Sequence record: PV540240.1
Source: Escherichia phage BUCT788
Length of the DNA stretch: 40,473 nt
Direction: 5' to 3' (one strand)
The position numbers were made by a program, and so were the translations under genes. Shown piece after piece: positions 30,015-30,674 of the stretch. The notes under the pieces are model-generated. The model searched no databases, was not told the DNA's origin, and was given only the letters and a program-made list of their open reading frames with translations. Each line of letters begins with the position of its first letter. Position 1 is the first letter of the stretch.

Positions 30015-30172
30015 CGCAATCATGGTAACGATTCATGAGCGGAAGACCTAAGGTCAGTACGTGGATAAAGACTCACTCTACTGACCTTAGCTATTGTAGT
30101 CAAGGACTTTAGGTAACACCTTAATAGAAGCTCACTTAGGGTCATCCTACTTACTGGTCTATCCTAGTGTCG

Positions 30173-30217
30173 CCTGACCTACGGTCCTTGACCTACAGTG
30201 GCTGTGGCCTACAGTAG
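30173..30217 (+). repeat. Short-repeat array (3 copies of CCTACRG) on the right-end side of the terminal repeat
   Basis: GACCTACGG, GACCTACAGT, GGCCTACAGT within 45 bp. Confidence 0.6.
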
Positions 30218-30253
30218 TGACGATGAGTTTTGGACCAAAAGTTTGAGACCACA

Positions 30254-30465
30254 TCTCACAGTTCAAGAACCTCAAGTCTCCCCCATAGGCCCTCTTTAAG
30301 TCCAGACCAAAGGCCCTACCCGTGCCAGTCTATCATAGGGTTGGACCGATAGTCAAGACGTTAGGTCAACGATAGGTCTAGGCTATGGCTGGAGGTTAGA
30401 CGATAGGTTGGAGCTATAGGTCTGTCTCTGAGTCTCTATCTGTATAGTGTTATAGTATAACATTA
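30254..30465 (+). repeat. Approximate position of the direct terminal repeat (collapsed to one copy); genome left end predicted at about 30254
   Basis: TCTCACAGTTCAAGAACC... at 30254 resembles the recalled left-end sequences of T7 and T3; the region is flanked by CCTACAGT arrays. The inner boundary is an estimate. Confidence 0.3.
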
Positions 30466-30471
30466 CGTCCA

Positions 30472-30565
30472 CACCTACAGTCTCACTACCTACAGTCATT
30501 GACTCCTGCTATACCTACAGTCACAACCATAAGACACCAACGCCTACAGTCAGAGACCTACAGTT
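30472..30565 (+). repeat. Short-repeat array (5 copies of [A/G]CCTACAGT) inside the left end
   Basis: Copies at 30473, 30488, 30514, 30542 and 30556. Confidence 0.65.
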
Positions 30566-30674
30566 AATAGACACACAGCTATAGACTTAAGGTCAAAGAC
30601 ATGTTAGTCAAAGACTATATCCTCTTACACCATGAGGCCGACGATAGCTTAATCAATATTATTTCGAATTACCT

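Follow-up and report, generated by a model that had tools for sequence, protein, structure and literature searches.

The region around position 30254 in the sequence record of Escherichia phage BUCT788 (PV540240.1; the whole stretch of 40,473 nt is called the window here) is, with high probability, a concatemer junction, that is, the joined genome ends of a K1F-like phage of the T7 group. Read in this way, the linear virion DNA would run from 30254 around the contig to 30437, with a 184-bp direct repeat at both ends, the two copies of which would have been merged by the assembler. It is predicted to start 5′-TCTCACAGTTCAAG... and to end ...CTGAGTCTCT-3′.

The feature is standard among K1F-like and T7-like phages and has been described before; for the packaging biology of the T7 group it is one more example and nothing beyond. 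Its value is mainly in annotation: the contig would be a complete genome, the virion DNA would be linear with a predicted length of 40346 + 184 = 40530 bp, and the record would best be re-started at 30254, with the 184-bp repeat at each end. The features discussed below are collected in Table 1.

Table 1. Features at and around the predicted junction, with mean identity to the window in aligned junctions where scored by segment.
Feature	Position	Strand	Description or basis	Mean identity to window
Assembly overlap	1..127	.	identical to 40347-40473	
Terminase small subunit (gp18 homologue)	26284..26547	+	phrog_1351, E = 1.2e-34	
Terminase large subunit (gp19 homologue)	27772..29559	+	phrog_38, E = 7.5e-131	
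Predicted phage-RNA-polymerase promoter (phiOR analogue)	29650..29675	+	PWM score 36.3; contains ACTTAACTATCACTATAGGGAA	
gp19.5 homologue, last gene before right end	29856..30014	+	52 aa; phrog_2193, E = 1.7e-24	
Conserved inverted repeat	30047..30091	.	perfect 12-bp arms (30047-30058 and 30080-30091), 21-nt loop	
Left array, CCTACRG x3	30173..30217	+	units at 30178, 30192, 30208	0.90
Conserved block directly left of repeat	30218..30253	+	..CGATGAGTTTTGGACCAAAAGTTTGAGACCACA; 93% identity across relatives	0.93
Predicted direct terminal repeat, one collapsed copy	30254..30437	+	184 bp; homology to relatives' ends and motif rule	first 40 nt 0.97; interior 0.66; last 37 nt 0.84
ATCTGTA, positional homologue of T7 class II pause/termination signal	30438..30444	+	aligns with ATCTGTT of T7 and T3	0.99, as ATCTGTA(T)
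Small palindrome	30445..30465	.	TAGTGTTATA / TATAACATTA; weak fold, -2.6 kcal/mol, z = -2.2	0.41
Right array, [A/G]CCTACAGT x5	30473..30565	+	units at 30474, 30489, 30514, 30543, 30557	0.60, over 30466-30565
Putative host sigma-70 early promoter, A1-like	30676..30704	+	TTGACT, 17 nt, TGgCTTAAT; by eye, by analogy with T7/T3 A1	
Putative host sigma-70 early promoter, A2/A3-like	30817..30846	+	TTGACA, 18 nt, TAAGCT; read by eye	

A circularised contig and its gene context

The window begins and ends with the same 127 nt (1-127 = 40347-40473; an exact prefix = suffix match). This overlap falls at an arbitrary place inside a gene region, unrelated to 30254, and is typical of an assembler k-mer: the assembler has closed the contig on its k-mer, and the circularised window has 40346 bp of unique sequence. 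An initial, sequence-only reading of the region had proposed that the second copy of a terminal repeat was lost by collapse in this assembly, and the single repeat copy in the window, together with the circular assembler overlap, is consistent with this.

Over its first 25 kb the window is 95.8% identical to the Escherichia phage phiYIO1-1 (over 97% of the length) and 94.1% identical to K1F (over 98%), while the 1.5 kb around the feature has 90-95% identity to many Kayfunavirus records. Judged by these similarities, the phage is a K1F-like member of the T7 group, genus Kayfunavirus. Every gene of the window is on the + strand, including that for a T7-type RNA polymerase at 33042-35723. A T7-type terminase (gp18 small subunit, gp19 large subunit) is encoded just upstream of the predicted right end; homologues of the large subunit are annotated as such in Penshu1, CR44b, K1F, T7, and T3, and the gp19 homologue is the enzyme expected to cut both ends. 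The gp19.5 gene occupies the same position in T7, T3, and CR44b.

One of 11 sites sharing the consensus CTAAACTATCACTATAGGRA lies between genes 19 and 19.5, as do phiOR in T7 and T3 and a predicted promoter in CR44b; this phiOR-like promoter is predicted to read rightward through gp19.5 into the junction. No phiOL-like promoter was found right of the junction, the best matrix score in 30438-31030 being 1.05 vs. at least 27 at the 11 sites; this absence is regarded as a non-defining difference from T7 and T3. The sites at 30676 and 30817 would be host-type early promoters, the second resembling the T7 A2 promoter (TTGACA...TAAGAT). A consensus scan for sigma-70 promoters and terminators was uninformative: it returned four promoter-like sites vs. 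2.9 expected and no terminators, and it missed both 30676 and 30817.

Promoters of both kinds, phiOR-like and host-type, could also be accommodated if this were a late/early intergenic regulatory region of a phage with no fixed ends here, packaging by a headful mechanism or having its ends elsewhere, with the repeats serving as regulatory or origin elements. T7 has secondary replication origins near phiOR and phiOL, which would fit such an arrangement, as would a contig that is circular as assembled. We find this scarcely credible: in relatives of about 94-96% identity, fixed ends have been mapped by experiment to the homologous bases, the terminase is of the T7 type, and the overlap behind the circularity is, as described above, arbitrarily placed and k-mer-like.

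Predicted ends of the virion DNA

For a junction of fixed ends, the reading preferred here, the left end is predicted to the nucleotide at 30254 (5′-TCTCACAGTT). The sequence TCTCACAGTTCAAGAACC, which starts at this position, has a single occurrence in the window (both strands checked). Its likeness to the left ends of T7 and T3, claimed in the sequence-only reading, is correct: the T7 record starts TCTCACAGTG and the T3 record TCTCATAGTTCAAGAACC.

The deposited left ends of at least 10 relatives align to window position 30254 or no more than 2 nt away. In a sensitive search with 30240-30480, the genomes of YZ1, Penshu1, phiYIO1-1, and Hafnia phage yong1 begin exactly at 30254, and those of CR44b, KM02, and TM1 within 2 nt of it; base 1 of K1F also corresponds to 30254. 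An exact-pattern scan of IMG/VR for the left-end motif gave 31 loci. In seven isolate genomes the motif stands at base 1-3 and recurs 179-196 bp from the end of the contig, and in five isolate genomes base 1 is the equivalent of 30254. Two of the IMG/VR isolate loci contain the published end-mapping primers of Citrobacter phages SH3 and SH4, for which run-off Sanger sequencing of virion DNA had located the ends (PMC4925675); the terminal repeat of Penshu1 was called by PhageTerm, according to its record note. Relatives with determined ends thus begin at the base homologous to the left end first suggested for this phage, in support of that suggestion.

The conserved block directly left of the repeat is predicted to be the context of the left-end cut, A/TCTCAC (here and below, a slash within or after a sequence marks the repeat boundary). 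It aligns with ACCATAAAAATCTGAGTGACTA/ in T7 and ACCACAAAAATCTGAATGGGTA/ in T3 (in both, ACCAYAAAAATCTGA...A/). A possible hairpin in this block, TTTTGGACCAAAA, was considered and rejected: it folds no better than shuffled sequences (z = -0.8), and is therefore treated as conserved sequence and not as a hairpin.

The right end is predicted at 30437 (...GAGTCTCT-3′), to within about -1 to +4 nt. The last base of GAGTCTCT in the window is 30437, directly before ATCTGTAT at 30438, and in T7, T3, K1F, and most other relatives the repeat closes with TCTCT or TCCCT, followed by ATCTGT. The repeats of T7 (160 bp, exact) and T3 (231 bp, exact) both have the boundary ...GTGTCCCT/ATCTGTT, and that of Penshu1 (179 bp) has ...GAGTCTCT/ATCTGTAT. 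For K1F, the published repeat is 179 bp (PMC4925675), while the record has an overlap of 178 bp and the boundary ...GAGTCTC/TATCTGTAT. Among the seven IMG/VR isolates the boundary is GAGTCTCT/ATCTGTAT in three and GAGTCCCT/ATCTGTAT in SH4; one of the seven has diverged repeat copies. Providencia phage EPr2, with four annotated repeat copies in an odd arrangement, was used for the boundary sequence only (...TCTCT/ATCTGTAT). The scatter around this point is small: the boundary is 1 nt earlier in the K1F record, 1 nt later in CR44b, and 4 nt later in the SH3 record.

A simple length rule, which counts from TCTCAYAGT up to the last base ahead of ATCTGT, yields exactly 160 for T7, 231 for T3, and 179 for both K1F and Penshu1; it is off by 1-3 nt for SH3, SH4, and CR44b, and gives 166 for phage F, for which the published length is 165 (PMC5582158). 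By this shared boundary motif before ATCTGT, the repeat of the window would be 30254-30437, or 184 bp.

The sequence-only reading had placed the right edge further out, with a repeat of roughly 212 bp that would run from 30254 until the right array begins, at about 30465. The variation in repeat length among relatives, from 166 to 231 bp, might seem to leave room for this, and the SH3 record does run 4 nt beyond the consensus boundary. However, all relatives with a determined or deposited repeat end within -1 to +4 nt of ...TCTCT/ATCTGT, with T7 and T3 exactly there; the lengths vary because of indels in the repeat interior, with the boundary fixed; and CR44b and Penshu1 carry the palindrome found at 30445-30465 in the window, with repeats that stop before it. 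We therefore regard the longer repeat as highly improbable. Its left edge stands, while its right edge overshoots by 28 nt, the repeat having been taken to extend to the right-hand array: the distance of about 210 bp given for the following array is right from 30254 to the first right-hand unit, but not as a repeat length.

Conservation was scored per segment, as identity to the window, in an alignment of 14 Kayfunavirus junctions and two T3-like ones (Table 1). The repeat interior holds the indels behind the lengths of 166-231 bp, so that repeat length varies by changes within the repeat and not by a shift of its boundary.

Flanking elements and a proposed mechanism

The motif ATCTGTA starts at the first base after the predicted repeat, and is preceded by T. 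ATCTGTT is the 7-base core of the T7 RNA polymerase class II signal at the concatemer junction, and is reported to be invariant among the three class II signals known for T7, where it is preceded by A, C, or T (10.64898/2026.02.12.705533). The window motif matches the T7 signal exactly in position and differs in the last of the seven strictly conserved bases (T to A), a variant present in all 14 of the Kayfunavirus sequences aligned (99% conservation). The copy at 30438 is the sole ATCTGTA on the + strand of the window, with about 2.9 expected, a difference that is not significant; for depletion of ATCTGTA and ATCTGTT on the transcribed strand, the + strand counts of 1 and 2 are likewise too small for significance. 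Pausing at the T7 signal is reported to be needed for concatemer maturation, by Lyakhov et al. in 1997/1998 and by Zhang and Studier in 2004. In the literature searched, nothing was found on a link between T7 RNA polymerase, lysozyme, and packaging.

ATCTGTA and a small palindrome lie in the 35 nt that separate the repeat from the right array. The latter is common to CR44b, Penshu1, and L032 (vB_EcoP_F) and absent from K1F. It was rejected as a core element, having a weak fold and not being conserved across the genus; in this spacer it is filler specific to the lineage.

Left of the repeat, the inverted repeat at 30047-30091 has a predicted DNA fold of -11.3 kcal/mol (z = -4.7), with none of 200 shuffles as good, and across 13 relatives its arms are 99% conserved and its loop 72%. 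Its centre is 185 bp left of the terminal repeat, compared with 190 bp in T7 and 184 bp in T3. The T7 and T3 inverted repeats have 19-nt arms of a sequence unrelated to that in the window, and the match is positional only. Chung, Nardone, and Hinkle reportedly proposed, in 1990, a hairpin end at the T7 inverted repeat as a processing intermediate. An Rfam scan of 29500-31100 (E <= 1) gave no match; the repeats and the hairpin are thus not accounted for by any known structured RNA.

The three CCTACRG units left of the repeat and the five [A/G]CCTACAGT units right of it, as listed in the sequence-only reading, were all found (30178-30208 and 30474-30557). The right array, with a period of about 13-16 bp, also has a degenerate unit, CCATAAG, at 30527. 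Further degenerate units (e.g., CCTAAGG, CTTTAGG, CTTAGGG) may sit left of the left array, in 30044-30172. Across the window there are 13 copies of CCTACAGT, vs. 1.9 +/- 1.5 in dinucleotide-preserving shuffles, of which none in 100 reached 13. Of these 13, seven fall inside 373 bp, each of them on the + strand (Poisson P about 3e-13 from the background rate). This enrichment and clustering confirm the observation; the pattern is not a chance one.

Heptamer arrays on both sides of the repeat, on one strand, are found in the window (three left, five right), T7, T3, and K1F; that the T7 repeat is bracketed by short-repeat arrays, as the sequence-only reading had stated, holds for T3 as well. T7 has CCTAAAG-family units, 7-8 of them left of the repeat and 12 right of it with a 13-bp period, and T3 has units of this family at the same place as the left array of the window. 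The arrays flanking the T7 repeat are presumably the SRR and SRL of Dunn and Studier, 1983. We read the arrays of the window as the counterparts of those in T7, the heptamer, CCTAAAG in T7, having become CCTACAG in the K1F lineage.

A role in concatemer processing is an old suggestion for such arrays, for which no demonstration was found here or in the searchable papers, among which none turned up on SRL/SRR; any role of the arrays in this phage we infer. They might have no sequence-specific role in packaging, and be slippage- or recombination-prone filler as opposed to binding sites for terminase or a junction protein. This seems to us a real possibility, if a somewhat doubtful one. The right array has from 2 to 7 exact units among relatives, with tandem expansions in some (e.g., five copies of CAACAACCATAGGTCT in L014), its mean identity is low, and a paper demonstrating function was not found in the searchable literature. 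On the other hand, both flanks of the repeat have kept the heptamer core, and on a single strand; conservation of the left array is 90%, 12 of 13 relatives having three copies (the other has two); and the two-sided layout survives in T7, T3, and K1F despite the change of heptamer, which argues for selection on the arrangement. In sum, that the arrays are conserved across genera on both sides and on one strand speaks for a role, while variable copy number and the want of a demonstration call for caution.

More speculatively, the CCTACAG arrays and ATCTGTA may be recognition elements particular to the lineage, which have evolved together with its small terminase and RNA polymerase of the K1F type, the arrays as multi-site landing pads for gp18 and ATCTGTA as a polymerase-specific class II signal. 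We consider this unlikely, though worth stating: if it were true, the variation in the several hundred Kayfunavirus junctions found (2-7 units, with expansions) would be a ready-made test, and one that would address the purpose of the arrays flanking the T7 repeat.

Returning to the concatemer junction, the sequence elements, their conservation, and their base-for-base match to the mapped ends of relatives were observed here, and the functional steps are borrowed by homology from T7 and T3. Replication would join genomes head to tail through the repeat, which would leave one repeat copy per junction, flanked by the left and right heptamer arrays. Late in infection, phage RNA polymerase from the phiOR-like promoter at 29650 would cross the junction and pause at ATCTGTA, just past the repeat. 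The gp18/gp19 terminase and the prohead would then process the junction, with A/TCTCAC giving the left end and TCTCT/ATCTGT the right, and repair synthesis would duplicate the single repeat copy, so that each packaged genome would have two. The hairpin intermediate proposed for T7 is at the inverted repeat about 190 bp to the left; the counterpart in the window would be that at 185 bp.

Comparison with K1F, T7, T3, and phages with mapped ends

The closest of the well-known systems is compared first. The first 45 nt of the K1F repeat (NC_007456 / DQ111067) are identical to those in the window save for a 1-nt difference in the length of a C run. The two phages share the conserved block left of the repeat, the ...GAGTCTCT/ATCTGTAT right boundary, three CCTACRG units on the left (the third being CCTACAGC in K1F vs. 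CCTACAGT in the window), and CCTACAGT units on the right. They differ in repeat length (179 bp in K1F vs. 184 bp predicted in the window), owing to small interior indels, e.g., CCCGTGCCAG in the window vs. CCCCAG in K1F. K1F is also without the 30445-30465 palindrome, having CCATAGG/CCATAAG-type units there instead, and has four exact CCTACAGT units on the right vs. five in the window.

T7 has a similar left end (TCTCACAGT) and a repeat that ends ...TCCCT/ATCTGT; on either side of it are heptamer arrays, all on one strand, whose units recur about every 13-15 bp. The wider layout is also alike: phiOR upstream, gene 19.5 last, an inverted repeat about 190 bp to the left, and host promoters to the right. 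Unlike the window, T7 has the heptamer CCTAAAG instead of CCTACAG, 12 right-hand units vs. 5-6, heptamer copies inside the repeat (the window has none there), the pause motif ATCTGTT vs. ATCTGTA, and a phiOL right of the array, where the window has none; the repeat interiors cannot be aligned.

T3 (NC_003298) is nearly identical to the window in its first 18 nt (TCTCATAGTTCAAGAACC vs. TCTCACAGTTCAAGAACC), and shares the CCCCCATAG motif, the right boundary motif, and the layout. It differs in having a repeat of 231 bp, the heptamer CCTAAAG, the canonical ATCTGTT, and a phiOL.

Among the relatives with mapped ends, SH3, SH4, and Penshu1 have left ends homologous to window position 30254 and repeats of 179-190 bp, which differ in length from that predicted in the window by between a few and about ten bases, owing to indels in their interior; their array copy numbers differ as well. 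Penshu1, and with it CR44b, has the palindrome after ATCTGTAT, as in the window.

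Contig edges and gene-internal sequences

The first and last 127 nt of the contig are identical (1-127 and 40347-40473). This identity is an assembler k-mer overlap from a circularised contig; it lies within a gene region, and has no relation to the true genome ends.

On the transcribed (+) strand, the window has two copies of ATCTGTT, the canonical T7 class II pause/termination core (994-1000 and 35539-35545), both within genes. On that strand ATCTGTA is found at the junction of the joined genome ends only; both counts are too small for interpretation.

The putative tail-spike gene (see table) lies in a stretch matching K1F and its relatives, in which an endo-N-acetylneuraminidase is annotated in those phages; by this similarity, the phage is probably specific for the K1 capsule.

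Features of the junction region and the tail-spike region
Feature	Position	Strand	Description
Tail-spike ORF	22765-25959	+	1064 aa; inside the stretch matching K1F and relatives
Sigma-70-like site, leftward	30356-30327	-	TTGACT, 18 nt, TG-TAGACT; within the terminal repeat
22-nt direct repeat	30369-30390 and 30679-30700		ACGATAGGTCTAGGCTATGGCT and ACTATAGGTCTAGGCTATGGCT; 95% identical
71-aa ORF	30601-30816	+	phrog_30192 match, E = 1.8e-47

Repeats and a short ORF near the junction

Slippage expands both the interior of the terminal repeat and the heptamer array to its right. In one relative (IMGVR_UViG_3300045988_000139) the terminal repeat reaches 231 bp because its interior contains an approximately 22-nt unit three times in tandem; in another (IMGVR_UViG_2706795479_000001) the right array contains CAACAACCATAGGTCT five times in tandem. 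In the record of Providencia phage EPr2 (OM256482.1), a 179-bp "direct terminal repeat" is annotated four times; each end has a terminal copy and another lying about 320-500 bp inward. The layout suggests that the end region was duplicated or that the assembly introduced an artefact.

The window also has a 22-nt direct repeat, with one copy within the terminal repeat and the other forming the spacer of a putative A1-like host promoter; K1F has an equivalent pair. The same putative promoter is overlapped by the 71-aa ORF, which ends directly before the A2-like one (beginning at 30817). In the relative CR44b, the counterpart of this ORF is interrupted by a stop codon and carries a pseudogene annotation; the ORF is probably not a real gene.

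Promoters and promoter-like sites at the junction in comparison with T7 and T3

Both T7 and T3 have a phage-polymerase promoter (phiOL) to the right of the terminal repeat, ahead of the first early gene, whereas no analogue was found over the corresponding stretch of the window (30438-31030): the top promoter-matrix score there was 1.05, while each of the window's 11 real promoters scored 27 or more. The leftward sigma-70-like site lies within the terminal repeat. So does the leftward promoter A0 of T3 within the T3 repeat, while in T7 the leftward promoter is directly to the right of the repeat.
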